Source of the DNA: Mobula hypostoma
Lineage: Eukaryota
Reading direction: 5' to 3'
Length of the DNA: 64,000 nucleotides
Assembly (NCBI RefSeq): GCF_963921235.1
Contig: NC_086097.1
Location: 89,158,001-89,222,000 of the forward strand
Shown here: piece by piece, positions 2,698-59,124 of the stretch
How the letters are laid out: each line of letters opens with the position of its first letter
Position numbering within the stretch: the first letter of the stretch is position 1
Made by a program: the position numbers and the translations under genes
The notes under the pieces: generated by a model
Told to the model about the DNA's origin: nothing
Database searches by the model: none
Seen by the model: only the letters and a program-made list of their open reading frames with translations

Positions 2698-2709
2698 GTA
2701 ACCGAACTC

Positions 2710-3855
2710 GCTGCTCCCCCCCACCGCCCCGTCACTCCTCCCCCGCCCCCGGCCACATTGCTCCTTCCCCCTCCCCGTCACCCCAGTCTCTCCTCTCATG
2801 CATCTCCCCACCCCACGTCTCTCCTCCCCATCAGACTCTTTGTTCCCTCCACCCCCGGTCACTCCCTCCCACCCACCACCCTATCACCCCATTTTCTCCA
2901 TCCCCTATCTCTCCTTCCCTCTGACTCTCTGGCACCCCCACCCATGTCACTCATTCCCCACCACCCCGTCACCCCAGTCATTCCTCCCACTGTGTCCCCT
3001 CCTTTCCAACTCTCTGCCCCCACACCCCCCACCACTCCCTCCTACCTAACACCACATCAACCCGTCCCTCCTTCCACCCAGTCTCCTCCGTACGACTCTC
3101 TGTCCCCACCAGCCATGTCACTCCCCCGCCCCGCTGTCTCCATCCCAGACCCATCCCAATGTCCACCCACCCGCTGTTTCTTCGTTCCCCCCCACCTTCA
3201 TCACTCCTTCCTGTCTACCACCCTATCTCCCCAATCACTCCACCCCTCTTGCTCTCTGTCCCTCCACCCCCTCCCCTCACTCCTTTCCAATTCCCCCCAC
3301 ACCCCTCAGTCCTTCCCGTTCATCCTATCCCTCCCTTCCCCCGTCATTGCAGTCCCCTCACCCGTCTCGCTCTCCCCCTCCACCATCTCGCTGTACCACC
3401 CCTCTCCCTGTCTGTCTGTACCCCCACCCCTGTCTCTCTGTACCCCCTACCCCCTCACTCCTTCCTATTCTTCCCTACCCTCCTGTCACCCCAGTTACTC
3501 CTCCCTCCATCTCTCCATCTCTCATCTCTCCTCCCCATCGCCTCTCCTTCCCCCATCCCTGTTACTCCCTCTAGTCACTCTGTCCCCCTCATAGCCCATC
3601 TCTCCATTCCCACCCCCCAAACCTCAACTTTTCTTCTAAATCCCCATCTCTACGCACCCCTCTAACTCCTGTCCGTCTTCCTTCACCCTCCCAAACTCCC
3701 GCCTCCCCATCTCTCTGACCCCCATCCTAAATCTGCTGTCAGCCCTGTATCTCCTACCCTCACCCTCTCATTTCCTCATTTCCCTCCCCTTGTCTCTCAC
3801 TTCCTTGTTCCTCCTTCCACCTGGCTTTTCACTTCCTTGCCCCCCTCCCTCCATA
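2710..3855. repeat. C/T-rich low-complexity tract
   Basis: About 1.1 kb of very G-poor, C-rich non-periodic sequence directly after the exon donor. Confidence 0.9.
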
Positions 3856-5897
3856 AGTACTGCCTGACTTGCATTGGCTTCCTCCAGCATCGTATGTGTT
3901 TCGGTCAAGCTTTCTAACAGCTGCAGAATCTCTTTTGTGCAGTCAATCAAGTGTTTTTGAATTGTGCTCTCAATTGTGTGACTGGATATAACAGAACAAA
4001 TTTTCATGCAGGAAGATTCCACTTGTAGCATTGACAAATGATCTGACAACATTGTTTGAGGGGTAAACGGATGGAAGAACCTTGGAGCAAAAAAAACCTC
4101 CTCCAATGCAGGGTCTCAATGCGAAACGTCAACCAAGCCTCTGTCTTCTTCCAGTAATTTGGGTTTTTTTTTTGCTGAGACGTAAAATGTTGGGCAGCGC
4201 ACCAGAAGCTGTTGTCCTTGAAATGGTGCCTTTGGATCTTCTAAATGAAGATCAGAAGCTGCAGATGCTAGAAATCTGAAATATAAAAAGGAAATGTTGG
4301 AAACACACAACAGATCAATCAGCAAATGTGGAAAAAGAAGGAGAAAATGTTTGCAGAGCTCACATGGTAGTTGGGTTCCTTGGGTTTCTCCTCGTTCACC
4401 AGAGGGGGTAAATTATAGCCATGATGCTGCAAATTGTTTTTTTGTTTTGTTCCATATTCCTGTATCTGCTGTCTCGTGTGTCTCTCGTAAAATACACTTA
4501 CAGTATGTTCACTATGGATGTCACCTCAGAGCAGAGTCTCGGCACTGTGTTATGAACCAATCCTGATGTGAGCTTGTGACCTGAATCGTCGACAATTCCT
4601 TTTCTCCCACTGATGCTGCTTGACCTACTGAGTTCCTCTAGCAGATTGTTTGGTATGACTTGTTTTGTGGACGAATCAGTGAAGGATGGGCATTGAAGAA
4701 GCGCGGTGGTTGAGATGTGTGGAACTTTGCATAAGAGAATGAATAAGCTGCAGGGAAGTTAAGTGAGGTTGAAAGGCTCTCGAGGATTTGATACACTGGA
4801 AGCCAGAATGGACTTAATGTCTGAATGACCTCCTGGCTTATAATAAGTGGTCCTGGCCAGGTTTTTGATTTAAAGTAAATGTAAAGAATGAAATGAAAGA
4901 ACAGAAAATGTTGTAAATTCTCAGCAAGTCAGGCAGCACCTTTGGAAACAGAGACAGTTAACACTTCAGGTTTTAATTCAGATACCCAGAATCAGTAGCT
5001 TATTGTGACTTTTCAACAACTGTAAAGCATGGCCTTGTCCTGTGAGTCTTTAGTCTTTGGTTAATTCTTAACTCCCTCCTACACATGTGGATGAAAGGTG
5101 CAAAAGGTGAATAGTGTATTTTGAAAAATGCATTTTGCTTATGAGACACATTAAAGCTAACCTCTTGTGAGCTTGGTTGCCTCTCAGTTTCAGTCAAGCC
5201 AGGGTTGCCAGTAAAAACAGCTTAGTGTGGTAATTATTAATGTGCAAAAATCATTTACTTAATGTAGCACAGCTATACTCCTGCAGTGAAATGTCTCTGC
5301 CATCCCAATGACATGTACAAGCTATGTGAGTGGATAGTAATTGACAAGTGAAGGTTTAGGTTGCTGAAGATCTGTACATGCAGGCAGTAACAAGGAGTTC
5401 TGTGAAAAGCTTCAAGGACAAGCACAACTACTTCCTGTCTTTCAATTAGCTAATCAGTGAATGATATCTAAATGGTGTCAGCAAAGTCCATTAACTCTTC
5501 AATATGTCGACAGTGCTATCGCATCCTCTGGACGGTCCTAAAATGATGCAGAGCCAAGGAAGAACTGATAGTTTGTAATTTGGCAGCTAATTTGTGCATC
5601 GTAAAATCCCATACACAAAACAAATTCATGATCCAAGACACTTTTTGTGAGTTGATTTGATGTGGTAAATGCTGTACAGATTGCGTCTGTCTCTTTTCTG
5701 AAATTGTTTCGATCTCCAGTTGAAATGATCCATCAGTCAATCATTCAAAGGTGTGACCTGCAATGTTTCTCTATATGGGCTGGATTGAGTTGGACACAGC
5801 TCATGCCTTGCATGAAAATAATGAATTATTGTCCAAACAGAGCTTATGTGTGACAGTTGACAAACAGGTCGAGATAGAATAGGACAACAAACACGAG

Positions 5898-6088
5898 AAA
5901 ATGCTGGAAATCCAAAGCAACACATACAAGATGCTGGAGGAACTCAGCAGGCTGGGCAGCATCAATGAAAAAGAGCAAACAACAGACATTGTTGGGCCAA
6001 GACCCTTCTTCAGTCCTGATGAAGAGTCTCTGCGAGAATCATTACTCTTTTCTATAGATGCTGCTTGGCCTGCTGAGTTCCTGCAGCA
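5898..6088. mobile_element. Fold-back element made of two inverted Penelope-type termini
   Basis: TGCTGGAGGAACTCAGCAGGC..GCAGCATC on the left pairs with GATGCTGC..GCCTGCTGAGTTCCTGCAGCA on the right. Degenerate CTGATGA hammerhead cores at the centre. Confidence 0.75.
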
Positions 6089-6136
6089 GGATAGAACAGG
6101 AAACTGTTGATCACATTCAAATGAATTGGACTGCAT

Positions 6137-7171: not shown

Positions 7172-8788
7172 CAGTGGCATGCCAAAGTTTGGGCACCCCT
7201 GGTCAAAATTCCTGTTACTGTAAATAGTTAAGTGAGTAGAAGATGAACTGATCTCCAAAAGTCATTAAGTTAAAGCTGAAACATTCTTTTCAACGTTTTA
7301 AGCAACATTAGTGTATCATTTTTGTTTTGTACAATTTTAGAGTGGAAAAAAAGGAAAGAAGTGCCATGCAGAAGTCTGGGCATCCCAAAAGATCTGAGCT
7401 CTCAGATAACTTTTACTAAGGTCTCAGACCTTAATTAGCTTGTTAGGGCTATGGCTTGTTCACAGTCATTGTTAGGAAAGGCCAGGTGATGCAAATTTCA
7501 AAGCTTTATGAATACCCTGACTCCTCAAACCTTGTCCCATCAATCAGCAGCCATGGGCTCCTCTAAGCAGCTGCCTAGCACTCTGAAAATTAAAATAAAT
7601 GATGCCCACAAAGCAGGAGAAGGTTATAAGAAGATAGCAAAGCGTTTTCAGATAGTCGTTTCCTCAGTTTGTAATGTAATTAAGAAATGGCAGTTAACAG
7701 GAATGGTGGAGGTCAAGTTGAGGTCTGGAAGACCAAGAAAACCTTCTGAGAGAAATGCTCATAGGATTGCTAGAAAGGCAAATCAAAACCCCCGTTTGAC
7801 TGCAAAAGACCTGCAGGAAGATTTAACAGACTCCAGAGTGGTGGTGCACTGTTCTACAGTGCAGCAACACCTGCACAAATATGACTTTCATGGAAGAGTC
7901 ATCAGAAGAAAACCTTTCCTATATCCTCACCACAAAATGCAGCGTCTGAAGTTTGCAAAGGAACATCTAAATAAGTCTGATGCGTTTTGGAAACAAGTCC
8001 TGTGGACTGATGAAGTTAAAATAGAACTTTTTGGCCACAATGAGCAAAAGTATGTTTGGAGAAAAAAGGGTACAGAATTTCACGAAAAGAACACCTCTCC
8101 AACTGTTAAGCACGGGGGGTGGATCAATCATGCTTTGGGCTTGTGTTGCAGCCAGTGGCATGGGAAACATTTCACTGGTAGAGGGAAGAATGAATTCAAT
8201 TAAATACCAGCAAATTCTGGAAGCAAACATCACATCATCTTTAAAAAAAAGCTGAAGATGAAAAGAGGATGGCTTCTACAACAGGATAATGAACCTAAAC
8301 ACACCTCAAAATCCACAATGGACTACCTCAAGAGGCGCAAGCTGAAGGTTTTGCCATGGCCCTCACAGTCCCCTGACCTAAACATCATCGAAAATCTGTG
8401 GATAGACCTCAAAAGAGAAGTGCATGCAAAACAGCCCAAGAATCTCATAGAACTAGAAACCTTTTGCAAGGGAGAATAGGCGAAAATCCCCCAAACAAGA
8501 ATTGAAAGACTCTTAGCTGGCTGCAGAAATCATTTACAAGCTGTGATACTTGCCAAACGGGGTGTTACTAAGTACTGATCATGCAGAGTGCCCAAACTTT
8601 TGCTTCGGGCCCTTTTCCTTTTTTGTTATTTTGAAACTGTAAAAGATGGAAATAAAAAAGTAATCTTGCTTAAAATATTAGAGAAATGTGTCAACTTTAA
8701 CTTTATGCCTTTTGGAAATCAGGTCATCTTTTACTCGCTTAGCTATTCACAGTAATAGAAATTTTGACCAAACTTTTGCATGCCACTG
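7172..8788 (+). mobile_element. Full-length Tc1 (DD34E, IR/DR type) DNA transposon, inactive
   Basis: TA|CAGTGGCATGC...GCATGCCACTG|TA. Inverted repeats of about 210 bp with inner direct repeats near 7366-7386 and 8580-8603. Confidence 0.95.
7553..8578 (+). pseudogene. Tc1 transposase pseudogene
   Basis: MGSSKQL..GYKKIAK HTH, GRPRK linker, WTDE / QQDN / SPDLNIIEN triad with 34 aa between D and E. Frameshifts at G6 (8114-8119) and A8 (8243-8250), TAG at 8477-8479. Confidence 0.93.
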
Positions 8789-9593
8789 TATATCTTTTTT
8801 GTAATTCACAGTGTTTTTCCCTATTATTATGTATTGCATTGTACTGCTGCTGCAAAGACACCAAATTTCACGACATACGCTTACGATATTAAACCTGATT
8901 CTCATTCTGAATGTACAGAACTAACTAGGTGCTTTGTACAGAACAGCTATCTGGTCACCAGTGTGTTCCAGCACATTGTGTCTCAATGCACTCATTTTGT
9001 CTCTGCTTGGATTGTTATGTGGCAAAACTTGCTTCAGGGGATTTTCACTGTCTTGTTTATGGTTGAACTTCTGCCAGACTCTGTGAAGGTGCAAGCTTCT
9101 AATCAGGTGGCTTCTTTCATTGAGTTAGTATTCCAAGAAGTATCACTGCTTATCACAGAATGAATTAGTGTTGATATTAGTCACACAGAAATCACATATT
9201 TTTGCTACCTTCCCTGATTCTTTCCTGAATACACTAATGTGAGTTATTAAGAAATTATTTTGCCATAAAATAACCAAGTACCAGTTTAATCCTAACCTTC
9301 TCCCAGCATTCGTATATTTTGTTTTCTTGTAGGAGCAGATGGATGATTAATTCTGAGTATCTGTTGGTTAGTTATGATCACGGGCTAAAGAAAGACACAT
9401 AGAAGCTGTTTATGTTTACGTAAAGCTTTAACCAACCACTGATGAAGAGAGCCTACCTTCTCAGCAGAACCAGACGTGAAAAATGTAGACCTCACCAGTA
9501 ATACCTACATATTGAGATGCACGTAGAAATAATAAAGAATCTAAATAAATGAATGACGCATTGAAGTAGCTGAAAAAATAATTGAAAGGTTAA

Positions 9594-9730
9594 GCAACAC
9601 ACATACAATGCTGGAGGAACTCAGCAAGCCAGGCAGCATTTATGGAAAAGAGTACAGTTGATATTTCGGGCTGAGACTCCTCGGCAGGACTCTTTTCCAT
9701 AGATCCTCCAGCATTTTGTGTGTGTTGCTT
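9594..9730. mobile_element. Fold-back Penelope-terminus element
   Basis: GCAACACACA..ATGCTGGAGGA pairs with TCCTCCAGCATTTTGTGTGTGTTGC. Mutated hammerhead on the - strand at 9655-9691. Confidence 0.75.
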
Positions 9731-11559
9731 GTTCTGGGTCTGTGCTATAATATAGGTACAGAACTGAAGAAAGTTAGAAGGAATTGCCAGAGGAGATGGC
9801 AGAGCAGTGGCACAGCAGGTGATGTTTCTACTGTGGTCCAGTGACCTGGGTTCAATCTGTGTTCTCTCTGTGACTGCTGAGGTTCCCCCTCCTCTGCCAC
9901 CTCATCATCCCAAACCTTAAGAGGTTCTGGTTGATGTTAAATTACCACTAATATAAGTGGATGGTGGAGGAAGAAGGGTGGAGTTGATGTGCACACAAAG
10001 AGAATAGTTTGTGTGGGAAATAAGTTGGTCAGTGGGACTGCTCCGAGACCTGGTGTGAATGGTAAGAGCTGCCAGGCTTTGACTAAGTATTCATGAAAGA
10101 ATAATGATTTATTTCCACCGGCCGGGGTAAATTTGAAGGGGGTCTTGCAAATGTTGATGCATCCTGGTGTCTTGAACCCTTTGGGATGGTAGAGGGTGGA
10201 GATTTGGAAGGTGTTGTTGAAGGAACATTGGCAGGTTGTGGAGCGCATTTTGGAAGCGATGCACTCTAATAGGCTTCTCGGATGTTGGAGGGAGTTAACG
10301 TGTCATGTGGAGAATGGGTTGTGAATCCTGATGGTATTGAGCTTCTGGAAGGATAATGCAGCTCCTTTGAGCAAATGGGGTGGCTTCACACAGCCAGGAT
10401 ATTCAGCCTATGACACGCAGTTATGGCCATGGGTTTATTTATTTAAAGTTACAAAACAGTAACAGGCCCTTCTGGCCCAATGGGCCAGTGCCAGCTAATT
10501 ACACATATGTGATTATGACCCGATGTTGGTAGAAAGCTGAGCACCCATGTGGTCATGGAGAACATACAAACTCCTTACAGTCAGTGACTGAATTGAACCT
10601 GGCCTAACCCCAACCGTAATAGCATTACACTAACTGCTATACTACCATGCTGCCCGTGGCCACTCTAGTTAAACTTAGAGCTAACGATGAGGGAATTCAG
10701 CTATACTAATGCCATTGAATGCCAAAGTGGGTTAGACTTTATTGGTGATTGTCACGGCTGGTTGTTTATTGTTTTGGTCTTGTATAAGTGCTTTGTTACC
10801 CAAGGAATGGCACTGTTATCTCGGGACAGAGATGAAGGACTGCCAATAAGCTCATCCATTTCCCCTTTATGAAGGAATGAACCCAGTCAGTGAACTGCTT
10901 TCCACCTATTTCCTGTAAGTTGTTTTACCAAGGCTCATTGATGCCACATTTGATCAGCTGCTATCTTGGTGTCAAGTGGATTTCTCATTTCATCTTTTGG
11001 ATTCACCTCTTTGGATGAAAGCTGTAATGGAGCATTAACTTGCATTAGTACTCAGTTTCGTTGCATATGTGTTGTTTGATGGCAACCTTCATAGATTGTG
11101 GTGTCATTCCCTAGACTGGCATTTAACAAACTTTTTGTGATCACAACTTTCCATGTTGCTACGTAAATGCAGTATGTTGTAACTGCATTGGAACATTGTG
11201 GCTAAGATCTAGACTAGTTCAGTAACACACAGTTTTCATAGTTAAACTGCATTTTATCTGGCCTCTTTGCCTCTATGGCTGCTTCTTGGTATCATGGAGT
11301 GAGTCAAATTGACTAAAATGCTTTCAGAGGAAGATTGACATGTGTTTCTGCCAGTGATCTTTGAATATGAGGAGATAGCTCCAGCAGCCCAAGTTTGATT
11401 CTGATCTCTGGTGCTTTTCTCTCTGTGACTAATTTCTTTCCTCTGGTGTGCTCTGGTTTCTCCCACATCCCAAGGTCGTGCAGCTTGTTTGTTTACGGAT
11501 GTGAGTTGGGGCTGTGGGAAGGATGAGCAACCGAACTATGACCGCGTGGTTCAGGGAGC

Positions 11560-12865: not shown

Positions 12866-14409
12866 CTTCTGCACTGCTTAAAATGGACGGAGGGGTGAAC
12901 CTACAGTTCATTGCAGATGACTAAGCCTCATTCACTGTCAAACACTATGCCAGAGCCACTGTAGTGTTTGGTGGTTATGGGGTTGGGCCAAGCATAATGA
13001 ACTGTACTCATCAGTGTGGAAGTAGAAATTTGAATGCGAACAAGGTGAACATTACAGTGGCGACAAAATTTGGTGGAAAAAAGGAGGACTTCTTGTCGAA
13101 TGAGGCAAACAAGCAGGTAACTATCCAGCTCATCATGGAATGTTTGCGACAGAGAGGCTGTGAAGTGATTCAAGCTGAAGGAGATGCCGACGTTGAGATC
13201 GCAAAAGCAGCCATCACAATGTCTGCTTTCAAATCTACCACCCTCGTTGGGGAAGACACAGATCTCCTCGTACTCTTGCTCTACCATGTAGTGGTAACAA
13301 ACTGCACTGAACTCTATTTCTGCTCAGACAAGGCAAAATCAAATGCCTATAATATCAAGGTCCTTAAGCAGATACTCAGAGAAGCAGCTTGTAATGATCT
13401 ATTGTTTCTCCATGCCTTTACTGGATGCGACTCAATGTCCAGAGTATTTGGGATCAGAAAGAAGTCGGGGTTCAAAGAATCATCAAGAAAGAAAAGGGAA
13501 TCAGAGATGGTTTGAAAACGTTCTTTTCACCAAAGCAAAGTCAGGACGTTGTGAAAACCAGTGGCTGTAGGACAATGGTGGTGTTGGTCAATGGAAATCA
13601 GAATGACTGCCTGGCATCTATCAGATACAATGTGCTCTGCAAGAAATTTGCAAGAGCTAAGACTTTTGTCATGCCTGAAAGACCGGCACCAACCACCTCG
13701 GCCTGTAAATTTCACTCCCTGCAGACTTACTACGAGGTTATGGAGTGGATGGGCTGTAGTGATGAAATGGAGCCGTCTGAGTGGGGATGGAGGGTAGAAG
13801 GGGAAAAACTCCTTCCAGTGATGACAGACAAAAGACCTGCTCCAGAAGTAGTTATTCAGATGATTCACTGCAGCTGTTCGGGAGGGTGCAATATGCTGTT
13901 TATCTGCAGAAAGCATGAGCTGGAATGCACCAGTGCATGAGGGCATTGCCAAGATGGCAACAGTGACAATATGATAAATGAGCCAATGATAGAAGAGGAT
14001 GATGAACAAGACTGCATCTGAGAAGCCATAAGGTAGCATATTATGTGTCATGACGTCAGTACTTAATACCAGAGTTGTCCCTTGATTATGTCATTGATGA
14101 TGTCATGACATCAGTACAAATGCAACTTTCATTCCAGAAACAACTGTTATTTGAAAAACATTGGTGAAAAGAGCATTCATGAAAACATCAGGTTTAAAAA
14201 AAGTTGCAATTTGATGGTTATCAGTCAGATTTTTGACACTTTTTCTGCTGGCAGCCATCTTGTTTTTTGATGTCATTTTTGAAGACTTTCCCAAGTGTCA
14301 AAATTGTCCAACTTTTGATATGTTGTTCTCCACATCGAATAGTACAATAAACCATCATAAAATTTTTTTTGCAATATTTTTGGGGTTAGGTGGTATATTG
14401 ACCCACCTG
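12866..14409 (+). mobile_element. 5'-truncated Academ-like (XPG nuclease + Cys-rich finger) DNA transposon relic
   Basis: ORF pieces 12964-13515 and 13425-14021: VVFGGY, AEGDADV, VGEDTDLLVLL, LHAFTGCD (FEN1/XPG-like motifs), then WGW and CSCSGGC....CRK..LECT..*GHC. Candidate right terminus ...TATTGACCCACCTG. Confidence 0.7.
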
Positions 14410-19049: not shown

Positions 19050-19670
19050 CAATCAGTGGCAAACATAAGTCACTGTCTCTGATCCTATACTTGTTCCAGT
19101 TATTCCACTTTCCATTCCCATTCCGGTATGTCTGTACATGGCTTCCTCTACTGTCGTGATGAGGCCACACTCAGGTTGGAGTAATAACACCTTATATTCT
19201 GTCTGGGTAGCTTTCGATCTGATGGCATGAACATTGATTTTTTTTGAACTGGTAATGGGCCCCCAGCCACCTTCAACTTTCCCCATCCTCTTTTCCTTCT
19301 CTCACCTTATCTCCTTACCTGCCTATTGCCTCCCGCGGTGCTCCTCCCCCTTTTTTCCATGGTCTTTTTTTCTCTCCTATTAGATACACCATCTCCACAC
19401 TTATATTTCTCTGAACAATCAACTTCCCAACTCTTTACTTCACCACCCTCCTCCTGGTTTAACCTATCACCTGGGTTTCTCCCTCTCCTCCCCCACCTTC
19501 TAACTTCGACTCTTCATCTTTTTCCCCCCAGTCCTGCTGAAAGGTCTCAGCCTGAAACATTGACTGTTGACTCTTTTCCATAGATGCTGCCTGGCCTGCT
19601 GAGTTCCTCCAGCATTTTGTGTGTGTTGCTTGAATTTCCAGCACCTGCAGATTTTCTCTTATTTGTGACA
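19050..19670 (+). mobile_element. Penelope-like element 3' end (GIY-YIG C-terminus + terminal repeat)
   Basis: Homologous to 42866-43460 in the opposite orientation (GCCACACTCAGGTTGGAG..CCTTATATTC.GTCTGGGTAGC). Hammerhead-like motif at 19529-19566. Confidence 0.8.
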
Positions 19671-19849: not shown

Positions 19850-20710
19850 GACATAGCCATAAACTACACACAAAAGACAGACAAATACCAAATGTGCAAC
19901 AGATAACAAACTGCAAATATGAAAAGAAAAAAAATTAAAGAAAATAATAATTATAATTAAAATAAAACAATAAATATCCAGAACATGAGATGAAGAGACC
20001 TTGAAAGTGAGTCCATAGATTGTGGGACGTTCAGTGTTGCAGAGAGTGAAGTTACCCCTTTGGTTCAAGAACCTGATCGTTGAGGGTTAATAACTGCTCT
20101 TGAAGTTAGTGGTGTGGGTTCTGAGGCTCCTGTATCACCCCTGATGGCAGCAGTGAGAAGACAGCATGGCCTGGATAGTGCTGGTCCTTGATGATGGTTG
20201 CTGCTTTCCTGCAACATGTAGATGTGCTCAGTGATGGGGAGGGATTTAGTCAACAAGAGAAAATCTGCAGATGGTGGAAATTCAACCAGCATCTATACGG
20301 AAAAGTGTGCAGTCAACGTTTCAGGCTGAGACCCTTCATCAGGACTAGTGAGGGATCTCAACCTGAAATGTCAACTGTACTCTTTTCCAGAGATGCTGCC
20401 TGGCCTGCTGAGTTCCTCCAGCATTTTTTGTGTGTTCCTCGACTTTTGTAGGCTTTTCATTCAAAGGTATTGGTGTTTCCATACCAGACTTTGATGCAGC
20501 CAGTTAGTATACGCTCCACCGTGCATCTATAGAAGTTTGTCAAAGTTAGATGGCATACCAAGTCTTTGCAAGCTTCTAAGAAAGTAGTGGTACTACTGTG
20601 CTTTCTTTGTAATGGCACTTGCATGCTAGAACCAGGACAGATCTCCTGAAATGATAATACCAAGGACTTTAATGTTGCTGACCCTCTCCACTTCATCCCC
20701 TGATGAGACT
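19850..20710 (-). mobile_element. Rex1/Babar-type LINE 3' fragment, interrupted by a fold-back element at about 20250-20440
   Basis: ORF 20457-20696 contains LTNFYRCTVERILTGCIKVWYGN. Confidence 0.75.
20311..20346 (-). ncRNA. Minimal type I hammerhead ribozyme motif (Penelope-associated)
   Basis: - strand reads AGTC-CTGATGA-AGG(GTCTCAG)CCT-GAAA-CG-TT-GACT: stem I AGTC/GACT, intact CUGAUGA and GAAA cores, stem II AGG/CCU, palindromic ACGU in place of stem III, GUU cleavage triplet. Confidence 0.7.
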
Positions 20711-21925: not shown

Positions 21926-24750
21926 TAGAAACATAGAAAACTTACAGCACAATACAGGCCCTATCTCCTTACCTTAGAAATTACTTATGGTTACCCATAG
22001 CCCTCTATTTTTCTAAGCTCCATGTACCTATCCAGGAGTCTCTTAAAAGACCCTATCGCTTCTGCTTCCACCACCGTTGCCGGCAGCCCATTCCACACAC
22101 TCACCACTCTGAGTAAAAAAAACTTACCCCTGACATCTCCTCTGTACCTACTTCCAAGCATCTTAAAACTGTGCCCTCTCATGTTAGCCATTTCAGCCCT
22201 GGGAAAAAGCCTCTGACTATCCACACGATCAATGCCTCTTATTATCTTGTACACCTCTATCAGGTCACCTCTCATCCTCCGTCTCTTCAAAGAGAAAAAG
22301 CCGAGTTCACTCAACCTATTCTCAGAAGACATGCTCCCTAATCCAGGCAACATCCTTGTAAATCTCCTCTGCACCCTTTCTGTGGTTTCCACATCCTTCC
22401 TGTAGTGAGGCGACAAGAACTGAGCACACTGGTCAACACAGTGGGGTCTGAAGAGGGTCCTATATAGCTGCAACATTACCTCCTGGCTCCTAAAGTCAAT
22501 CCTACGATTGATGAAGACCAATACACCATATGCCTTCTTATCCACAGGGTCAACCTGCGCAGCTGCTTTGAGCGTCCTATGGACTCGGGCCCCAAGATCT
22601 CTCTGACCCTCCACACTGCCAGTAGTCTTATCATTAATACTATATTCTGCCATCATATTTCACCTACCAAAATGAACCACTTCACATTTATTTGGGTTTA
22701 ACTCCATCTGCCACTTCTCAGCCCGGTCTTGCATCCTATCAATGTTCCACTGTAACCTCTGACAGCCCTCCACACTATCCCCAACACCCTCAACCTCTGT
22801 GTCATCAGCAAACTTACTAACCCATCCCTCCACTTCCTTATCCAGATCATTTATAAATATCACAAAGAGTAGGGGTTCCAGCATAGGTCCCTGAGGCACA
22901 CCATTGGTCACCAGCCTCCATACAGAGTATGACCCGTCTACTACCGCTCTTTGCCTTCTGTGGCAAGCCAGTTCTGGATCCACGAAGCAAGGTCCCCATG
23001 GATCCCATGCCTCCTTACTTTCTCAATAAGCCTTGCATAGGGTACTTTATCAAATGCCTTGCTGAAATCCATATACACTACATCTATTGCTCTACTTTCA
23101 TCAATGTGTTCAGTCACATCCTCAAAAAAATTCAATCAGGCTCATAAGGCACGATCTGCCTTTGACAAAGCCATGCTGACTATTCCTAATCATATTATGC
23201 CTCTCCAAATGTTCATAAATCCTGCCTCTCAGGATCTTCTCCATCAACTTACCAACCACTGAAGTAAGGCTCACTGGTCTATAATTTCTTGGGCTATCTC
23301 TACTCCCTTTCTTGAGTAAGGGAACAACATCTGCAACCCTCCAATCCTCTGGAACCTCTCCCGTTCCCATTGATGATGCAAAGATCATTGCCAGAGGCTC
23401 AGCAATCTCCTCCCTCACCTCCCAGAGTAGCCTGGGGTACATCTTGTCCAGCCCTGGTGACTTATCCAACCTGATGCTTTCCAAAAGCTCCAGCACATCC
23501 TCTTCCTTAATATCTACATGCTCAAGCTTTTCAGTCTACTGTAAATCATCCCTACAATCACCAAGATCCTTTTCTGTAGTGAATACTGAAGCAAAGTATT
23601 CATTAAGTATCTTGGCTATTTCCTCCGGTTCCATACACACTTTCCCACAGTCTCAATTGATTGGTCCTATTCTCTCATGTCTTATCCTCTTGCTCTTCAC
23701 ATACTTGTAGCACGCCTTAGGGTTTTCCTTAATCCTGTCTGCCAAGGCCTTCTCATGACCCATTCTGGCTCTCCTAATTTCATTCTTAAGCTCCTTCCTG
23801 CTAGCCTTATAATCTTCTAGATCTCTATCATTACCTAGTTTTTTGAACCTATCGTAAGCTTCGCTTTTCTTCTTGACTAGATTTACAACAGCCTTTGTAC
23901 ACCACGGTTCCTGTACCTACCATCCTTTCCCAGTCTCATTGGAACATACCCATGCAGAATGTCACACAAATATCCCCTGAACATTTGCCACATTTCTGCT
24001 GTACATTTCCCTGAGAACAACTGTTCAGAATTTATGCTGCCAAGTTCCTGCCTGATAGCCTCATACAAACGTTTGTATTTCCCCTTACTCCAATTAAACG
24101 CTTTCCTAACTTGTCTGTTCCTATCCCTCTCTGATGCTGTTATAAAGGAGATAGAATTGTGATCACTATCTCCAAAATGCTCTCCCACTGAACGATCTGA
24201 CACCTGACCAGGTTCATTTCCCAATACCAGATCAAGTACAGCCTCTCCTCTTGTAGGCTTATGTACATGTTGTGTCAAGAAACCTTCCTGAACACACCTA
24301 ACAAACTCCACCCCATCTAAACCCCTTGCTCTAGAGAGGTGCCATTCGATATTTGGGAAATTAAAATCTCCCAGCACGACAGCCCTGTTATTATTACGCC
24401 TTTCCAGAATCTGTCTTCTTGTCTGCTCCTCGATGCCCCTATTGCTATTGGGTGGTCTATAAAAAGCACCCAGTAGAGTTACTGACCCCTTCCTGTTCAT
24501 AACTTCCACTCACAGAGACTCCGTAGACAATCCCTCCATAACTTCCTCCTTTTCTGCAGCCGTGACACTATCTCTGATCAACAATGCCAGACCCCACCTC
24601 TTTTGCCTCCCTTCCTGTCCTTTCTGAAACATATAATGCCTGGCACTCGAAGTAACCATTCCTGCCCCTGAGCCATCCAAGTCTCTGCAATGGCCACAAT
24701 ATCATAGCTCCAAGTACGGATCTATGCTCTAAGCTCATCTGCTTTGTAAT
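21926..24750 (-). mobile_element. CR1 LINE ORF2 (endonuclease + RT), 5'-truncated, frameshifted
   Basis: ORFs with FYRPPNS, LGDFNFP, DSDHN (APE endonuclease) and NYRPVSLTS, QHGF, YMDFSKAFD, GVPQG, KFADDT (RT). (TTCTATG)-like tail at 21926. Confidence 0.95.
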
Positions 24751-39374: not shown

Positions 39375-40100
39375 AAATTGCAGGAAGAATTCAGTGGGTC
39401 AGGCAGGATTGGCGGAGGCCGAAGGATAGTTGATGTTTCTGGTCGAGAAACTACATCAAGACAAAGTGTAGAAGAGAAATGACCCGTACAAAAGAGAAGT
39501 AAGGAAGGCTTACGGCAAAGGTTGGCAGGCAACAGATGCAGCCTGGTGAGGGGGGAGATGATGGGCAGATTGAGCCACAAGCAACACGCAAGATGCAGGA
39601 GGAGCGTAGTAGGCCGGGCAGCAACTGTGGGGGGAAGGAAATCATTTATATTTCGGATTGAGGCCCTTTATCTGGACTGTAGAAAATATGGATGGTAGGG
39701 GGTGGAGATAACCAGTATCTTTTTTTAAAAAGTGAATGGAAGGAGTGGATCAAGAGCTGACAGGTGATGGGTGGATCCAAGTGAGGGGCATGTGATAGGT
39801 GGGTGGGAATAGCACCAATAGCTGGAGGCAACAAAGGGCTGCAGATGTTGGAGTCTGCTGGAGAGGAGGGTGGAGCATGGGAACAGAAGAAGGGATGAAG
39901 AGAGCAGATGGGAGTAGTGGGGGTGGGAAAAAGTGTAAACTGTGTGTCGGTGCTGGGCAAATGGCTCAGTGAAGAGGTCACCCAGTCTCACTGAGGTAGA
40001 CCGGGCCACATAAGCGCACGGTTCAATAAATGAGGCGAGGAAGGGATATGCATGTGAGTGTCTGCCTCACAAGGGCTGTTTGGACCAACTGCAAGAGGTG
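39375..40100 (-). mobile_element. Decayed Penelope-like fragments (two termini + GIY-YIG piece)
   Basis: RLGDLFTEPFAQH near 39950-39985. Degenerate hammerhead motifs at 39426-39461 and 39643-39680. Confidence 0.65.
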
Positions 40101-42200: not shown

Positions 42201-42865
42201 ACTCCCAGATGCTTTAATCGGTATTTATGGTCAGAGTGCCTTCATCAAACTAAAGGGTTGTTTATTATTTCTGCTCTTTGATCTGCTTGCTCACTTTTGT
42301 TACTGGCCTCACCTTGGTTGCCAGGGCAATGTCACTGAGGTGCTTTGCATAATTGCAGTGGAAGCCTATCACATATCTAATAATAACCTTCCCCCACTCC
42401 TCTCTCCTTCTTGCTCCCAGGGACAGCCTGAAGAATGGAAACCTTTTAAAAAGTTACTAGTGAAAGATGAGTCACTGGGCTCCCACGGGAGTAGGCGGTT
42501 GGTCCTGATTTGTGATTAATGCTAGTCTTTGATTGGCACAAGAGAAACTAACCCATCCAGTTCAACTTGCACAGGTTGACTGAGTTACCTTGCAACCTGT
42601 CCTGACTTGAGGTGGATCCTGCCTGCTCTTCCAGAGAGTCTGGCTGAATCCTAATAACTTGTGCTGTACTTGTCATGTTTGTCGAAGGCAGGTTAGCTTC
42701 TGTATTAACCTCACCCCGGTCAGGAGAGACTCAGAGAAGGAAGTAGAGAGTCGAGCTGGAGAGGGCGGGGGAGCACGTTTTTTCTTTACAAAAAATACCT
42801 TTTAAACAGGGAGGTATTGACAACCGGCCACAAAAAAACTTGCCTGCCTTTTTATGATGGTGAAC

Positions 42866-43826
42866 GCAGCAGGCCAGGCAGCATCTCTAGGAAGAGGTAC
42901 AGGACTAACTGAAAGAAGAGCTAGTAAGAGATTTGAAAGTGGGAGGGGGAGGGGGAGATCCAAAATGATAGGAGAAGACAGGAGGGGGAGGGATGGAGCC
43001 AAGAACTGGACAGGTGATTGGCAAAAGGGATATGAGAGGATCATGGGACAGGAGGCCCAGGGAGAAAGAAAAGGGGGAGGGTGGAAAAACCCAGAGGATG
43101 GGCAAGGAGTATAGTGAGGGGGACAGAGGAAGAAAAAGGAAAGAGAGATAAAGAACGTGTATAAATAAATAACGAATGGGGTACGAGGGGGAGGTGGGGT
43201 ATTAGCAGAAGTTTGAGAAGTCAGTGTTCATGCCATCAGGTTGGAGGCTACCCAGACGGAATATAAAGTGCTGATCCTTCAACCTGAGTGTGGCTTCATC
43301 TTTACAGTAGAGGAGGCTGTGGATAGACATATCAGAATGCGACGTGGAATTAAAATGTGTGGCCACTGGGAGATCCTGCTTTCTCTGGCGGACAGAGCAT
43401 AGGTGTTCAGTGAAACGATCTCCCAGTCTGCGTTGGGTCTCGCCAATATATAGAAGGCCACATCGGGAGCACTAGACGCAGTATATCACCCCAGCCGACT
43501 CACAGGTGAAGTGTTGCCTCACCTGGAAGGACTGTTTGGGGCCCTGAATGGTGGTGAGGGAGGAAGTGTAAGGGTATGTGTAGCACTTGTTCCGCTTACA
43601 AGGATAAGTGCCAGGAGGGAGATCGGTGGGGAAGGATGGGGGGGACAAATGGACAAGGGAGTTGCGTAGGGAGCGATCTCTCTCCCAGTCTGCGTTGGGT
43701 CTCATCAATATATAGAAGGCCACATCGGGAGCACTGGACGCAGTATATCACCCCAGCCGACTCACAGGTGAAGTGTATGTGTGTTGCTTGAAATTCCAGC
43801 ATCTGCAGATTTCCTTGTGTTTGCCC
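42866..43826 (-). mobile_element. Penelope-like element fragment with GIY-YIG endonuclease
   Basis: PPGTYPCKRNKC..FTCESAGVIYCVQCSRCGLLYIGETQRRLG..HFN (GIY-YIG with Cys motifs). Partial tandem duplication and an inverted terminal piece at 43775-43826. Confidence 0.88.
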
Positions 43827-47409: not shown

Positions 47410-50400
47410 TATGACCATAAGACCTTAAGATCTTATGGTGCAGAATTAGGCCATTTGGCCCATCGAGTCTGCTCCACCATTTCATCGTGGCTGATGCATT
47501 TCCCTCTCAGCCCAGTCTCCTGCATTCCCCCCATATCCCTTCATGCCCTGACTAATCAAGAATCTCTCAGCCTCTGCCTTAAATATACCCAATCACTTGG
47601 CCTCTATAGCCACCTGTGACAATGACTTCCACAGATTCACTACTCTCTAGCTAGAGAAATTCTTCCTCATCTCCATTCTAAATGGACACCCATCTATTCT
47701 GAGCCTGTGTCCTCTGGTCTTAGACTCCCCCATCATTGGAAATATCCTCTGCATATGCACTCTATCGAGGCCTTTCAACATTTGATAGGTTTCAATGAGA
47801 TCCTCCCCCTCATTCTTCTGAATTCCAGTAGTTACAGGCTCAGAGCCATCATACACTCCCCATATGATAAGCTTCTCAATCCCAGAATTATTTTCATGAA
47901 CCTTCTTTGAACCCTCTCCAGTGTCAGCACATAGTTTCTTAGATAAGGGCCCCAAATCTGCTCACAGTACTCCAAGTGAGGCCTCACCAATGCCTCATAA
48001 AGCCAACATTACATCCTTGCTTTTATATTCTAGTTCTCTTGAAATGAGCGCTAACATTACATTTGCCTGCCTCAACACTGACTCAACCTGCAAAATAACC
48101 TTTAGGGAATCCTGCACAAGGACTCCCACCCTTCTGCACCTCAGATTTATGAATTTTCTCTCCACTTAGAAAATAGTCTACACTTCTATTTCTTCTGCCA
48201 AGGTCTGTGACAATTAACTTTCTGACATTGTATTCCATCTGCCACTTCTTTGCTCATTCTCCTAATCTGTCTAAGTCCTCCTGTAGCCTCTCTGCTTCCT
48301 CAATACTATCTGCCCCACCATGTATCTTCATATCATTTGCAAAATTGGCCACAACACCATCAATTTCATCATCCAAATCATTGACATAAAACGTGAAAAA
48401 GCGTTCCTAACTCAGACCCATGTTGAATACCACTAACCACCGGTAGCCAACCAGAAAAGGCTGCCTTTATTCTCATTCTTTGCCTCCTGCCAATCAGCCA
48501 ATGCTCTATCCATGTTAGTATCTTTCCTATAATACAATGGGGTCTTACCTTGTTAATCAGCTTCATATGCAGCACTTTGTCAAAGACTGTTTGAAAATCC
48601 AAGTTAACAACATCCACTGATTCTCCTTTGTCTATCCTACCTGTTATTTCATCAAATAATTCCGATGGGTTTGTCAGGCAAGATTAACCATGCTGACTGT
48701 GGCCTATTTTATCACATGCCTCCAAGTACCTCAAAACCCCATCCTTAACAATCAACTCCAACATCTTCCCAACCACTAAGGTCAGGCTAACTGGCCTATA
48801 AGTTCCTTTCTTCTGCCTCTCTCCCTTCTTGAAGAGTGGTGTGACATTTGCAATTTTACAGTTCTCTGGAACCATGCCAGAGTATATTGATTCTTGAAAG
48901 ATCATTACTAATGCCCCCACAATCTCTTCAGGCAGCTCTTTCAGAACCCTGGAGTGTCGAGCATCTGTATTCGAAATTACTTCTAGAAACTCCAGCCATT
49001 GCTGCTCTACCATCATCCCTGCTAGTGTTCCCTTCCAATCAATTTTGGCCAGCTCTTTCATGCCTCTGTAATTCCCTTTACACCACTCTAATACTGATAC
49101 CTCTGATTTATCTTCTCCTTCCCAGATTGCAGGGAGAATTCTGTCATACTATGATCAATTTCTCCTAAGGGTTCCTTTACCATAAGCTCTCTAATCAATT
49201 GTGGTTAATTGTACCCAATCCAGAAAGGTTAATCCCCTAGCGGGCTCAACCACGAATTGCTCTAAAAAGCTGTCTAATAGGCATTCAACAAATTCCCCTG
49301 CTTGGGATCCAGCAGCAACCTGATTTTCCCAGTCTACCTACATATTGAAATTTCCCATGACCATCATAACATTGCCCTTTTGGCATGCATTTTCAACCTT
49401 CCATTGTAATTTGTAGACCATATCTTTGCTACTGTTCAGAGGTCTATATATAGCTCCCAACAAGGTCTTTTTACCCTTGCAGCTTCTTAGTTCTACCCAC
49501 ACCGATTCTATACCTGTCAATCAGATGTCACCTCTTTCTAATAATTTGATTTCATTTTTACCAACAGAGTCACGCCATCCCCTCTGACTACCTGCCTGTC
49601 CTTTCAATATAATGTGTATTCTTGGATGCTAATCTTCTTTCAGCCACAATTCAGTGATGCCCACAACTTCATACAGGCCAATCTGTAACTGTGCTACAAA
49701 TTCTACCTTATTCCGTATACTGCATGCATTCAAATATAACACCTTCAGTCCTGTATTGACCCTTTTTTGATTTTGTCCTCCATTTTCATTGCAGCTCATC
49801 CCACTGACTGCAATTTTGCCTTATCATCAGCCTGTCCTTTCTAGCTGTCTCACTACACACTGCTTCTGTTTGTAAACCAACTACTCCATCTTAGCCCTAT
49901 CACCCTGGTTCCCATCCCCCTGTCAAATTAGTTTAAACGCTCCCAAACAACCCAAGCAAACCTGTCCATAAGGATATTGGTCCCCTTTGGGCTCAGGTGT
50001 AGCCTGGCCCTTTTGTACAGGTCATACCTTCCCCAGAACAGATCCCAATGATGCAGAAATCTGAACCTTTTACCCCCAACACCAGTTGCTCAGCCACGCG
50101 GTCACCTGCCAAATCATCCCATTCTTACCCGCACTGGTACGTGGCACAGGCAGCAACCCAGAGATTACTGCCCTGGAGGTCCTGCTTTTCAGCTTTCTGT
50201 TTAGGTCCCTGAAATCTTTCTTCAGGACCTCCTCCCTTTTCCTGTCTCTGTCACTGGTGCCAATGTGTACAAAGAGTTCTAGCTGCTCACCTACCCCCTT
50301 TAGAATGCTGTGGACCTGATCCGAGACATCCCTGACCCTGGCACCTGGGAGGCAACACACCATCCAGGTATGTCTATTGCATCCACAGAATCTCATTTCT

Positions 50401-50800
50401 ATTCCTCTAACACTGGAGTCTCCTATCACTACTGCAGTCCTCTTCATCTCTCTTCTCTTCTGAGCCACAGTGCCAGACTCAGTGGTAGCTGAGCTCCCCC
50501 CTTGTAGGTCATCCTACTCAACAGTATCCAAAGGGGTATACTTCTAATTGGGGGTAATGGCCAAAAGCATAATCTCTACTCGTTGCACCTTTCCCTTCTT
50601 TCCCAGACAGTCACCCAGTTACCTGGCCCCTGCAATCTAGGGGTGACTTCCTCCCTATCTGTCATTTCCTCAGTCTCCTGTGTAAGCTGAAGGTTATCGA
50701 GCTGCAGCTCCAGTTCCTTACCACATTCTCTGAGAGACTGCAGGTCAGTGCACTTGGTCCAGATGTGGTTATCCAGGGGGCTGGAGGTCTATTATTCTGA
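47410..50800 (-). mobile_element. CR1 LINE spanning ORF1 (esterase) to tail, internally deleted
   Basis: VIGDSSVRG..CCLPGA..HIGTSD (ORF1). IYRPLNS, MGNFN (EN). YRPVSLT, LDFQTVFDK (RT). (CTTATGGT) tail. Confidence 0.93.
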
Positions 50801-52289: not shown

Positions 52290-54941
52290 CAGTCATTGGA
52301 GCAGAATTAGGCCATTTGTCCCATTGAGTCTGCTCTACCATTCCATCATGACTGATTTTTTTTTCATCCCTCTCAACTTCTTTCTCCTGCCTGCTCCTTA
52401 TAACCTTTGACACCCTTACTAATTAAGAACCTATATAAACTTTCACTTTAACTACATTGAATGATTTAGCCTCTACATTGTGGCAATGAATTTCACAGAT
52501 TCATCAGGTTAAAGAAATTCCTCCTCATCACTGTTTTAAGTCGACGTCCTTCTATTCTGAGGCTGTGCCCACTGGTCCTCGACTCCCCATTATAGGAAAC
52601 AACCACTCCACATCCATTCTATCTGGGCCCTTCAATATTCAATACCATTCAATGAGATCCCACTTCATCCTTCTCAGCTCCAGTGACGACAGAACAAGAG
52701 ACATCAAACACTCATTAGGTGTTAACCCTTTCATTCCTGGGATAATTCTTGTGAATCTCCTCTGAACCCTCTCCAATGCCAGCACATTAATTCTTAGAGC
52801 ATCCCAAACTGCTCACAACACTCCAGGTGCGGTCTGACTGTCTTATAAAGCCTCAGCATTACATCATTGCTTTTGTATTCTAGTCCTCTCAAAATGAATG
52901 CTAACATTGCATTTGCCTTTCTTAACTGCGATTCAAAGTCCAAAGTAAATCTATTATCATAGTGTATATATGTCACTATATGCTACCCTGACATTCATTT
53001 TCTTGTGGGCATTCACAGTAGATACAAAGAAATGTAATATAATCAATGAAAAACCACACAAGACAAAGACAGACAAGCAACCAATGTGCAAAATTTAACA
53101 AACTATGAAGTGCAAAAAAAGAAAATAATAATTAGTAAGCAATAAATATCAAGAACATGGGTTGTAGAGTCCTTAAAAGTGAGTCCACAGATTGTGAAAT
53201 CAGTTCAGGGTTGGGATGAGTGAAGTTATTTCCTCTGGTTCAAGACCCTGATGTTTGAGGGCTAATAACTGTTCCTGAACCTGGTGGTGTGGGACCTGAG
53301 GCTCCTGTACCTCCTTCCTGATGGCGGCAGTGAGAAGAGAGCATGTCCAGATGATGGGGGTCCTTGATGATGGAGGCTGCTTTCCTGCGACAGCTCTTCT
53401 TGTGAATGTACTCAATGGTGGGGGGAAGGCTTCACCGGAGATGGACTGGGCTGTATCCACTACTTTTTGTATGTTTTTCTGTTCAGGGGGAATTGGTGTT
53501 TTCGTACCACACCGTGATTTAGCCATTCTGTATATTCTCCGTTGTGGATCTATAAAAGTTTTAGATGACATGCCAAATTTGTGCAAACTTCCAAGAAAGT
53601 AGAGGTGATACTGTGCCTTCTTTGTAATGATAGTTATGTGCTGAGTTCAAGCAGATCCTCTGAAAAAACTAACACGGAGAACATTAAAGTTGCTGGCCCT
53701 CTCCACTCCTTATCCCCTGATGAGGACTGGCTCATAGACCTCCAGTTTCTTCCTCCTCCAACTCAATAATCAACTCTTTGGTCTTGCTGACATTGAGTAA
53801 GAGGTTGTTATTGTGAACTGTTCAGCCAGACTTTCAATATGCTGAATCTTCACCACCTTTGATTCAGTCCACAACTGTGGTGTCATCAGCAAACTTAAAT
53901 ATAACATTGCAACTGAACTTAACAGTACTAGACTCAACCTGCAAGTTAACCTATAGGGAATCCTGCATGAGGACGCCAAGTCCCTTTGCACCTCTTATTT
54001 TTGTATTTTCTCTCTGTTTAGAAAATATTTTATGCTTTTATTCCTTCTACCAAATTGCATGACTACACACTTTCCTACACTATATTCCATCTGCTACTTC
54101 TTTGCCAATTCCCCTCATCTTTCCACATCCTTTTGCAGACTCTCTGCTTTCTCAACACAGCCTGCCCCTCCACCTATCTTTGTATCTTCCGGAAACTTGG
54201 TCACAAAGTCATCAATTCTGTCATCCAAATCATTAACATATAACAAAAGAAGCAGTCCCATCACTGACCCCTGTGGAACATCAATAGACAATGGCAGCCA
54301 ACGAAAAAACTGCCCTTTATTCTCATTCTTTGCTTCCCGCCAGTGGGACAATCTTGTATGCATGCTTGTATCTTTCCTGTAATACCATGGGCTCTTATCT
54401 TGTTTAGCTGCCTCATATGTGGTACTTTGTCAAAGGCCTTCTGAAAATTCAAGTAAACAACATCCACTGACACTCCTTTATCCAGATTGGTCAGGCAAGA
54501 TTTCCCCTTAAGGAAACCATGCTGACTTTGGCCTATTTTATCATGTGCCTCCAAGTATCCCGAAACCTCCTCCTTATTAATGGACTCCAACTCTTCCCAA
54601 CCACTGAAGTCAGACTAATTGGCCTATCATTTCTTTTATTTTGCCTCTCTCCCTCCCTCCTTAAAGAGTGGAGTGACCTTTGCAATTTTCCAGTCCTCTG
54701 GAAACGTTCCAGAATCTAGTGATTCTTTAAGGACCACTACTAATGCCTCCATATTCTCTTTGGCTACCTCTCTCAGAATCCTGGGTTGGCATCAATCTGA
54801 TCCAGGTGACTTATCTACCTTCACACCTTCCAGCTTCCCAAGCACCTTCTCCTTAGTAATAACTCACTTCTCCTCCTGACAGTGTTGAATTGCTGACATA
54901 TTGCTGGTGTCTTCCACAGTGAAGGCTGATGCAAAATACCT
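52290..54941 (-). mobile_element. CR1 LINE 3' part with nested Rex/Babar fragment (about 52930-53930)
   Basis: RT motifs in ORFs 54115-54590. Host sequence GCATTTGCCTTTCTTAAC...GACTCAACCTGCAAG is split by the insert. The host probably continues at 58620-58975. Confidence 0.85.
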
Positions 54942-57900: not shown

Positions 57901-58595
57901 CACAGTATCTTTGACTTATTTCTAGTCTCCTCTTCCTCGACCCTAACACCCTGGTTTCCTTCCCCTTGCCAACTTAGATTAAACCCTCCCTAATAGCTAT
58001 TTTAAACAATCCCGCCAGGATATTAGTACCCTTTCAGTTCAGGTGTAACCCATTGTTTTTCTATAAGTCATACTTCCCCCAAAATAGATCCCAATGATCC
58101 AAGAATTTGAAGCCCTGCCCCCTGTACCAGTTACTTAGCCACACATTCATCTGCTTAATTCTGCTATTCTTACCATCATTAGCGCGTGGCTCAGGCAGTA
58201 ATCCTGAGATTATTACTCTGGAGGTCCGGCTTTTCAATTTTCTTCCTAGCTCCCAGTAATCTTCCTTCAGGACCTCCTCTCTTTTTCTGTCTATGTCACT
58301 GGTACCAACATGTACCAAGACTTCTGACTGCTCTCCCTCTCTCCTCAGAATACTCTGGACCCGATCTGAGACATCCCGTACCCTGGCACCAGGGAGGCAA
58401 CACACCATCCGGGTATCCTTGTTTGGCTCACAGAATCTCTTGTCTGTTCCCCTCACTATGGAATCCCCTATAAGTACTGCATTTCTCCTTGCTCCCTTGA
58501 TCATGGCACTGGGCAGAATGCCAGAGTCCTGTTTGCTGTGGTCTTCCTCTGTCAGGTCAACCTCTCCAACAGTATCTGAAATGATATATCGATTT
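54942..58595 (-). mobile_element. Younger CR1 LINE (ORF1 esterase, EN, RT) nested in an older CR1
   Basis: Long ORF pieces 58061-58504 (LIGDSIVRG), 56732-57532 (IYRPPNS, GDFN, SDHN), 55812-56285 and 55123-55533. Tail CACAAGATCACAAGAC at 54942. Confidence 0.95.
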
Positions 58596-59124
58596 CTTCT
58601 ACTTTAGTTTGTTTGCTTTTTTTTTGTCCCCCATTCCTACCTCGCCAACATCATTTTCCAGTGGTCCAATATCTACTCTCACCTCTCTTTTTATTCTTTA
58701 TATACATAAAATAACTTTTTGTATCTACTTTTATATTATCGGCTAGCTTACCTTCATATTTCAGCTTGTTGCTTGTTTAGTTGCCTTTTGTTTTTTTTTA
58801 AAGTTTCCCAATTCTCTAACTTCCGCTAACTTTTGCTGTATTATATACCTTCTCTTTAGCTTTTATGCATTCCCTCGTCAGCCATGGTTGCGTCATCCTC
58901 CCTCTGGGATGTATTTATCCTGCACCTTCCAAATTGCTCCCAGAAACTTCAGCCATTGCTGTTCTGCTGTCAACCACAAGAGTAAAGATAAAAATAAGAG
59001 CAGAATAAAAACATCTTGCCTTTAAACGTACTTTGGCTTGGATTTTTCTGTTAATCCTAGCCACTCATGATTTAGCCTATTCTCCCTGTGGCCACCTGGG
59101 TTTCCTCTGGGTTCGTCGATCTTC

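Follow-up and report, generated by a model that had tools for sequence, protein, structure and literature searches.

Minimal hammerhead ribozymes have been described in the pseudo-LTRs (pLTRs) of metazoan Penelope-like elements (PLEs) (Cervera & de la Pena 2014, PMC4209133). In that description, the motif has a type I layout, in which CUGANGA is followed by an extra nucleotide, a helix II started by G, GAAA, a palindrome at positions 15.2/16.2, and UH. In addition, the described copies are mostly solitary and truncated, close pairs on opposite strands occur, and a U-rich tract lies upstream of the motif. The published minimal hammerheads do not cleave as monomers, and their cleavage as multimers is low.

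The insertions of endonuclease-bearing PLEs have features of their own. An inverted 5′-truncated partner and a one-sided tail of 30–40 bp are standard in Penelope insertions (Craig 2021, PMC8557442), and palindromes at head-to-head junctions are recurrent products of Penelope replication, with self-priming as a possible source (Arkhipova 2013, PMC3846280). Furthermore, Poseidon of Anolis carolinensis, from the Penelope/Poseidon clade, carries a pLTR hammerhead near the ORF start, and this hammerhead reportedly required the element protein for cutting (Frangieh 2024, PMC11167929). According to the same study, the anole protein is predicted to dimerise, nicks and extends both target strands, and makes insertions copied from uncleaved RNA, the tail being the stretch between two reverse transcriptase (RT) start sites. 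Meanwhile, non-LTR retrozymes (Li et al. 2026, bioRxiv 10.64898/2026.07.22.740005) are Penelope-derived, non-coding, direct tandem repeats, each with an intact type I hammerhead; they were reported in one Chondrichthyes genome and are often intronic in Xenopus.

Here, we analysed a 64-kb stretch of the Mobula hypostoma genome (hereafter, the window), in which a hammerhead motif is found on the minus strand at 20346–20311. By its sequence, the motif is a minimal hammerhead in the Penelope definition and shares all of the features listed above from Cervera and de la Pena, the upstream U-rich tract being found in the longer copies of the family; however, helix II of the ray copy is short (4 pairs) and closed by a G-U pair. 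The portion of their alignment (PMC4209133) that we examined contains no cartilaginous-fish row, and the terms shark and skate gave no match there. Like the units of Craig (PMC8557442) and Arkhipova (PMC3846280), some of whose junctions also lack a target-site duplication, the ray insertion has head-to-head arms, a palindromic junction, and a tail on one arm, but both arms are cut down to the last ~95 bp and the unit has no ORF. It also shares with Poseidon a pLTR hammerhead close to the ORF start, a tail that two RT start sites would delimit, and a presumably uncleaved RNA template, whereas the ray family has the cysteine linker of Neptune or Nematis. A retrozyme array is ruled out, since the window holds an inverted pair with only one intact motif. 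In our literature search, no publication combined Penelope-like, hammerhead, shark, and inverted, and none was found for Penelope with Mobula transposable elements. We propose that the motif is very probably the pLTR hammerhead of a high-copy Penelope-like retrotransposon, left within an arm of the stub that sits in a SPINT1 intron, and is likely an inert relic with a core kept by chance.

The hammerhead motif

The minimal type I motif (20311–20346, minus strand) starts with the 5′ strand of helix I (20346–20343). This is followed by the CUGAUGA box (20342–20336), an extra A as the single nucleotide that separates position 9 from 10.1 (20335), helix II (20334–20331 with 20326–20323; 4 pairs, two of them G-U, and a 4-nt loop), GAA (20322–20320), the palindrome ACGU in place of helix III (20319–20316), U17 (20315), and the 3′ strand of helix I (20314–20311; 4 pairs with the 5′ strand, or 5 counting a wobble). 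The core boxes CUGANGA, GAAA, and UH are all present. The initial annotation had reported an intact minimal hammerhead with CUGAUGA, GAAA, UH, stems I and II, and ACGU, and the layout is indeed complete, with the qualifier that U stands at positions 11.1 and 17. From the layout, the predicted cleavage site is 20315/20314 on the minus strand, 3′ of GUU, in agreement with the cut after GUU that had been proposed.

Both strands of the window were scanned with a strict descriptor (helix I of at least 4 pairs, helix II of at least 3 pairs, and a palindromic helix III), and 20346–20311 was the sole match on either strand. In shuffled windows, the strict descriptor found no match in 100 shuffles, and a looser descriptor found 0.11 per window. 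Meanwhile, the Rfam hammerhead families did not match the motif, neither at the gathering threshold nor at E ≤ 10. The centroid fold of the 36-mer consists of helices I and II, and its folding energy was no better than that of shuffled sequences (z 0.05). With an ordinary energy and no answer from Rfam, the case rests on the motif and its context.

The 10.1/11.1 pair is G-U in this copy, and position 17 is U. Of the 11 other aligned copies in the window, 5 carry U and 4 carry C at position 11.1, and 6 carry C and 4 carry U at position 17. In addition, the consensus letters at the loose ends of public contigs are C at both positions. The U at 11.1 and the U at 17 look like products of CpG decay, judging from these letters. 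Both U17 and a G-U pair at 10.1/11.1 are found among the published natural minimal hammerheads (PMC4209133), and given this, the copy would not be demonstrably dead. Our literature search gave nothing usable on the effects of GUU or of G10.1-C11.1.

The Penelope-like family

A longer paralogous 3′ fragment lies close by on the plus strand (19104–19663). It consists of a GIY-YIG C-terminus (35 of 46 residues, or 76%, identical to protein P0002, E 1e-22), a pyrimidine-rich 3′ UTR, a decayed hammerhead at 19530–19567, the pLTR end, and a tail. The hammerhead paralogue sits ~290 nt past the GIY-YIG C-terminus, so this copy ties the hammerhead motif to the ORF of the element.

Another 3′ fragment is found on the minus strand (42860–43720), with the cysteine linker, a GIY-YIG with CCHH, and the 3′ UTR, and with the hammerhead deleted. 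Its protein part (43.2–43.5 kb) is 87% identical to an RT plus GIY-YIG protein of Mobula hypostoma and 58–82% identical to five Hypanus sabinus proteins among 12 matches. With these ray relatives and the paralogue at 19530 downstream of the GIY-YIG end, the Penelope link drawn in the initial annotation is borne out. The homologues P0002–P0005 have a YIDD-type RT plus GIY-YIG; for the latter, the Pfam E values range from 5e-4 to 2e-3 and lie just under the cut-off. Of the ORF, the window fragments hold only the linker and GIY-YIG part. In P0002–P0005, the linker between RT and endonuclease has the form C-x4-C-x2-C (x3 in P0004), and the final Cys is lost from the window copy. A C-x2-5-C-x2-C linker is typical of the Neptune and Nematis clades (Craig 2021, PMC8557442), and by this linker the family would be a Neptune-type (or Nematis) Penelope-like element.

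At 42860–42910 (minus strand), a clean deletion, apparently with short direct repeats on either side, has removed almost the entire hammerhead. In the 42.9–43.8 kb fragment, the 5′ end (43681–43823) has a 96-bp internal duplication with 97% identity, and an inverted tail-bearing stub (43773–43815, plus strand) forms another typical Penelope junction there. We also noticed matches to the Penelope endonuclease in the Hypanus proteins P0004 and P0006, which bear the names of a kinase-domain isoform or a mucin-2 isoform. P0004 consists of RT and endonuclease over its whole length, and these proteins are likely annotation artefacts or exonised copies.

The abundance of the family is high. Using nhmmer, we found 20 family fragments in the 64 kb, with a profile built from 8 of these 20. 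In three public DNA runs, the summed contig depth over the motif was 0.4–1.2 million (~1e6) versus 11–35 in the flanking unique bins (one bin was 0 in one run). This indicates a family of tens of thousands of similar copies, with depth read as a rough sign of very high copy number and not as a copy count. Scans with the pLTR pattern gave no match in viral contigs and none in metagenome contigs, and the single match in genome contigs was a chance match in bacterial sequence. Among 29 metagenome loci with distant RT relatives, most of them short and covering the RT part only, a descriptor or pLTR match was found in 0 of 29.

The SPINT1 intron

In the host gene, on the plus strand, Pfam detects a MANEC domain followed by PKD, then Kunitz, then LDLa domains, which we take to be the SPINT1 architecture. 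The intron from the MANEC exon to the PKD exon would span ~32 kb (2698–34710), as inferred from GT/AG signals with matching phase. The domain order and the splice signals at 2698 and 34710 uphold the earlier placement of the motif antisense within a SPINT1 intron. The motif lies in the middle of this intron, 14–18 kb from either inferred splice site, and two other head-to-head Penelope stub pairs are found in the same intron (5885–6089 and 9584–9731). The sense strand of the stub has no CUGANGA box. Cis-cleavage of the SPINT1 pre-mRNA is ruled out, since arm 2, the arm on the sense strand, lacks this box; the statement that the motif would not cut the pre-mRNA thus holds in cis. Long low-complexity tandem repeats with a strong strand skew flank the MANEC exon (~590–2200 and ~2700–3660).

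Structure of the insertion

The motif belongs to one of the two arms of an insertion of ~185 bp, in which the arms are joined head to head and only one side bears a tail. Arm 1 (20252–20346, minus strand) contains the hammerhead, the 3′ part of the pLTR, and the tail, as delimited by the inverted repeats I1 and I2 and by BlastN against the 19530–19663 copy (20346–20287, 85%; 20291–20252, 88%), and it has an internal deletion of ~39 nt in the 3′ part of the pLTR. The tail of ~34 nt (20252–20285, minus strand) is found in arm 1 only, and its limits follow from the same BlastN comparison and from joints in public contigs, which connect 20285 to 20427–20436 on opposite strands. Arm 2 (20347–20436, plus strand) is the inverted partner, sense to SPINT1, and was recognised by the inverted repeat I3 and by alignment. 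It begins at the same base as arm 1 and ends at the tail boundary without a tail of its own; a 6-nt deletion takes part of its CUGAUGA box, and its palindrome is decayed. The centre of the palindromic insertion (20344–20349) coincides with the 5′ edge of helix I in the alignment of the arms, which differ at 9 of 52 aligned sites (17%), or ~9% per arm. Many public contigs continue into the tail beyond 20436 as loose ends, and among the pieces listed no public contig spans the insertion.

The insertion is surrounded by an older dispersed repeat. The left flank (19960–20248) matches 53137–53392 at 81% and has a high contig depth, and the right flank (20443–20700), the continuation of the repeat, matches 53465–53717 at 73%. 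By eye, in comparison with the paralogue at 53137–53717, we saw no target-site duplication at the stub, and ~30 nt of the older repeat are missing. At the stub we find the pLTR, the inverted 5′-truncated partner, and the one-sided tail of 30–40 bp of endonuclease-bearing PLEs. The segments 19960–20700 and 53137–53717 are two copies of an older LINE-like repeat, and a frame at 53.2–53.6 kb has a weak PF09004 match below the cut-off.

Decay of the core among the window copies

To the alignment belong the 12 of the 20 family fragments that cover the motif; the other 8, which lack most of it, were excluded. All 13 core and palindrome letters are kept in only 1 of the 12 aligned copies, the one at 20346–20311, and the other copies keep 8–11. 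The CpG of the palindrome is lost in 9 of the 11 other copies, in 8 of them by CpG-type transitions. In 3 of the 11, ACGU has changed to the palindrome AUAU, the only change on both sides of the palindrome. This is the product that CpG decay on both strands would yield, and it would mimic compensation without selection. Since CpG decay can fake compensation in this way, a test by stem covariation is unsafe. With only the 12 window copies, we found no stem covariation beyond that of shuffles (the observed values were reached by 60–457 of 500, and one score by 103 of 500).

At ~9% divergence per arm, the probability that 11 core letters are intact is 0.37. Multiplied by the 4 of 11 other copies that keep some palindrome, this gives ~0.13 intact per copy. 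Thus, with a dozen copies, one survivor is expected by chance, and no selection is needed. Speaking against an entirely neutral history, core columns vary less than other columns among the window copies (21/119 vs 51/180, Fisher p 0.04) in an alignment that is itself anchored on the core. This is best read as selection on the parent lineages plus alignment bias, and it shows that the motif mattered at some stage. By orientation, none of the 6 sense copies in the alignment and 1 of the 6 antisense copies is intact, numbers without power to show a bias against sense ribozymes.

Folding and cleavage prospects

The hairpin of both arms has a folding energy of ~-65 kcal/mol (z -7.9 on the minus strand and -9.6 on the plus strand). 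In minus-strand RNA, arm 2 lies upstream of the ribozyme and is transcribed first, and it is predicted to pair completely with the motif. Helix I (4–5 pairs) and helix II (4 pairs) are predicted to form only without the partner arm. The predicted pair probabilities of helices I and II are 0.0 for transcripts that start at 20380 or further upstream, and 0.3–0.6 for RNA that starts at the palindrome centre (20346–20351). An antisense read-through RNA includes arm 2 and is thus predicted to have its motif trapped.

For dimers, the energies were computed by nearest-neighbour rules without tertiary or Mg terms. The double hammerhead reached -8.9 kcal/mol, versus -6.0 for each monomer (helices I and II), and the most stable inactive dimer reached -17.8. 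If excised, a tandem dimer may still show weak cleavage in vitro. The initial annotation had suggested that this copy could still self-cleave. In the model this looks weak, since that reading missed the second arm, whose pairing with the motif is predicted to be complete, and the double hammerhead is disfavoured.

The junction at the edge of helix I

The window contains three head-to-head pairs, with centres near 6010, 9691, and 20346, and short deletions from a single junction at the 5′ edge of helix I would suffice to produce all three. Two longer copies retain the upstream UTR, and in both a pyrimidine tract plus CAG stops at this edge (19505–19532, plus strand; 39680–39710, minus strand). 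A second tract with TAG (19573–19586, plus strand) lies just before the ATG at 19584, which opens a short frame, possibly the ORF start of the element. The CAG and TAG tracts are two candidate splice acceptors that would bracket the ribozyme. In the Penelope of Drosophila virilis, an intron end has been mapped to helix I.

The junction could be caused by an RNA end, by splicing, by self-priming, or by an RNA dimer held by the ribozyme, and three cases are insufficient to choose. The last cause would imply that the main job of the hammerhead is structural rather than catalytic. Two uncleaved RNAs, joined by the palindrome and helix I, would be copied as a template pair by a dimeric RT/endonuclease with priming on both target strands, and the cDNAs would stop at the 5′ edge of helix I. 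This is consistent with the centring of all three pairs at the helix I edge, with arms that begin at the two tail boundaries, and with the anole protein (Frangieh 2024, PMC11167929). However, the pattern would also follow from self-priming at the same edge, or from a splice acceptor or the 5′ end of an RNA located there, and we regard a mainly structural role as quite unlikely. If it were true, head-to-head stubs would be the footprint of a ribozyme-dimer intermediate.

Origin of the stub and alternative explanations

We propose the following origin for the relic. The RT/endonuclease of the element would have inserted two short cDNAs head to head into the older repeat, one begun at the tail end and the other at the pLTR end, comparable with the two adjacent start sites of the anole element. 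Both cDNAs would have ended at the 5′ edge of helix I, with uncleaved RNA as templates. Uncleaved RNA was the dominant template in the anole system (Frangieh 2024), in agreement with the presence of an uncut ribozyme in the ray unit. The stub would later have undergone small deletions and CpG decay. At present, the SPINT1 pre-mRNA would hold only the complement of the ribozyme, and an antisense read-through RNA would fold with arm 2 into a long hairpin that abolishes helices I and II. As part of an active parent element, the motif would cleave in the form of a dimer linked through the palindrome, likely aided by the element protein.

In a different origin, the stub would descend from a palindromic, non-autonomous mini-element that multiplies as a whole, like a MITE or a retrozyme, instead of arising anew by truncation of a full element, and the hammerhead would still be a passive relic. 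The derivation of all three window pairs from one helix I-edge centre by short deletions speaks for it, but the outer ends and tails are unlike among the three pairs, the pairs do not form a tandem array like that of non-LTR retrozymes, the window also contains longer copies that retain ORF ends, and palindromic junctions already recur in Penelope replication (PMC3846280). We consider such a mini-element unlikely. A working ribozyme in vivo, which would cleave in trans by pairing its ACGU palindrome and helix I with another family RNA, could draw on the 13 of 13 retained core and palindrome letters, on the dimer cleavage described for this hammerhead class, and on the abundance of family sequence in a run presumed to be RNA (10,330 contigs; the RNA status is a guess). 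It would nevertheless require an antisense transcript, in which the motif is predicted to be tied up by pairing with the other arm; the palindrome is decayed in most potential partners, the energy of the double hammerhead is unfavourable against the alternatives, and the hammerheads tested in the literature we consulted are low in activity or protein-dependent. Trans-cleavage by this copy is therefore very unlikely.

Use by the host seems extremely improbable to us. A pre-mRNA hairpin or an antisense ribozyme RNA that regulates SPINT1 would suit the intronic location and the stable hairpin predicted for the sense strand (z -9.6), yet the stub is remote from both inferred splice sites, its arms have diverged by 17% and carry deletions, the same intron holds two further such pairs, and the family is extremely abundant. 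As for a chance match to a short motif, the 36-mer that folds no better than shuffles and the lack of an Rfam score would be expected from it. It is rejected on the homology to the pLTR, and its probability is close to nil, since the strict descriptor found nothing in 100 shuffles and the motif occupies the place where a Penelope-like family would carry it in the pLTR and agrees with the published consensus.

We return to the likely inert relic. The locus alone matters little, as relics of this known class of motif are very numerous. Nevertheless, it presents an intact-looking hammerhead that the other arm of its inverted Penelope stub is predicted to mask. In addition, its dimerisation palindrome is a CpG site, which decays fast and can fake covariation. 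Furthermore, the repeated occurrence of a junction at the helix I edge is relevant to the function of Penelope hammerheads, and the copy-rich ray genome offers the numbers for studying it.

Other transposon remnants in the window

Six-frame translation revealed other transposon remnants at 7490–8200 (plus strand), 12925–14090, 21994–24509 (minus strand), 48687–50513 (minus strand), and 54264–58603 (minus strand). Presumably, these are a Tc1/mariner-like transposase, one unnamed ORF remnant, and several CR1-like LINE pieces.
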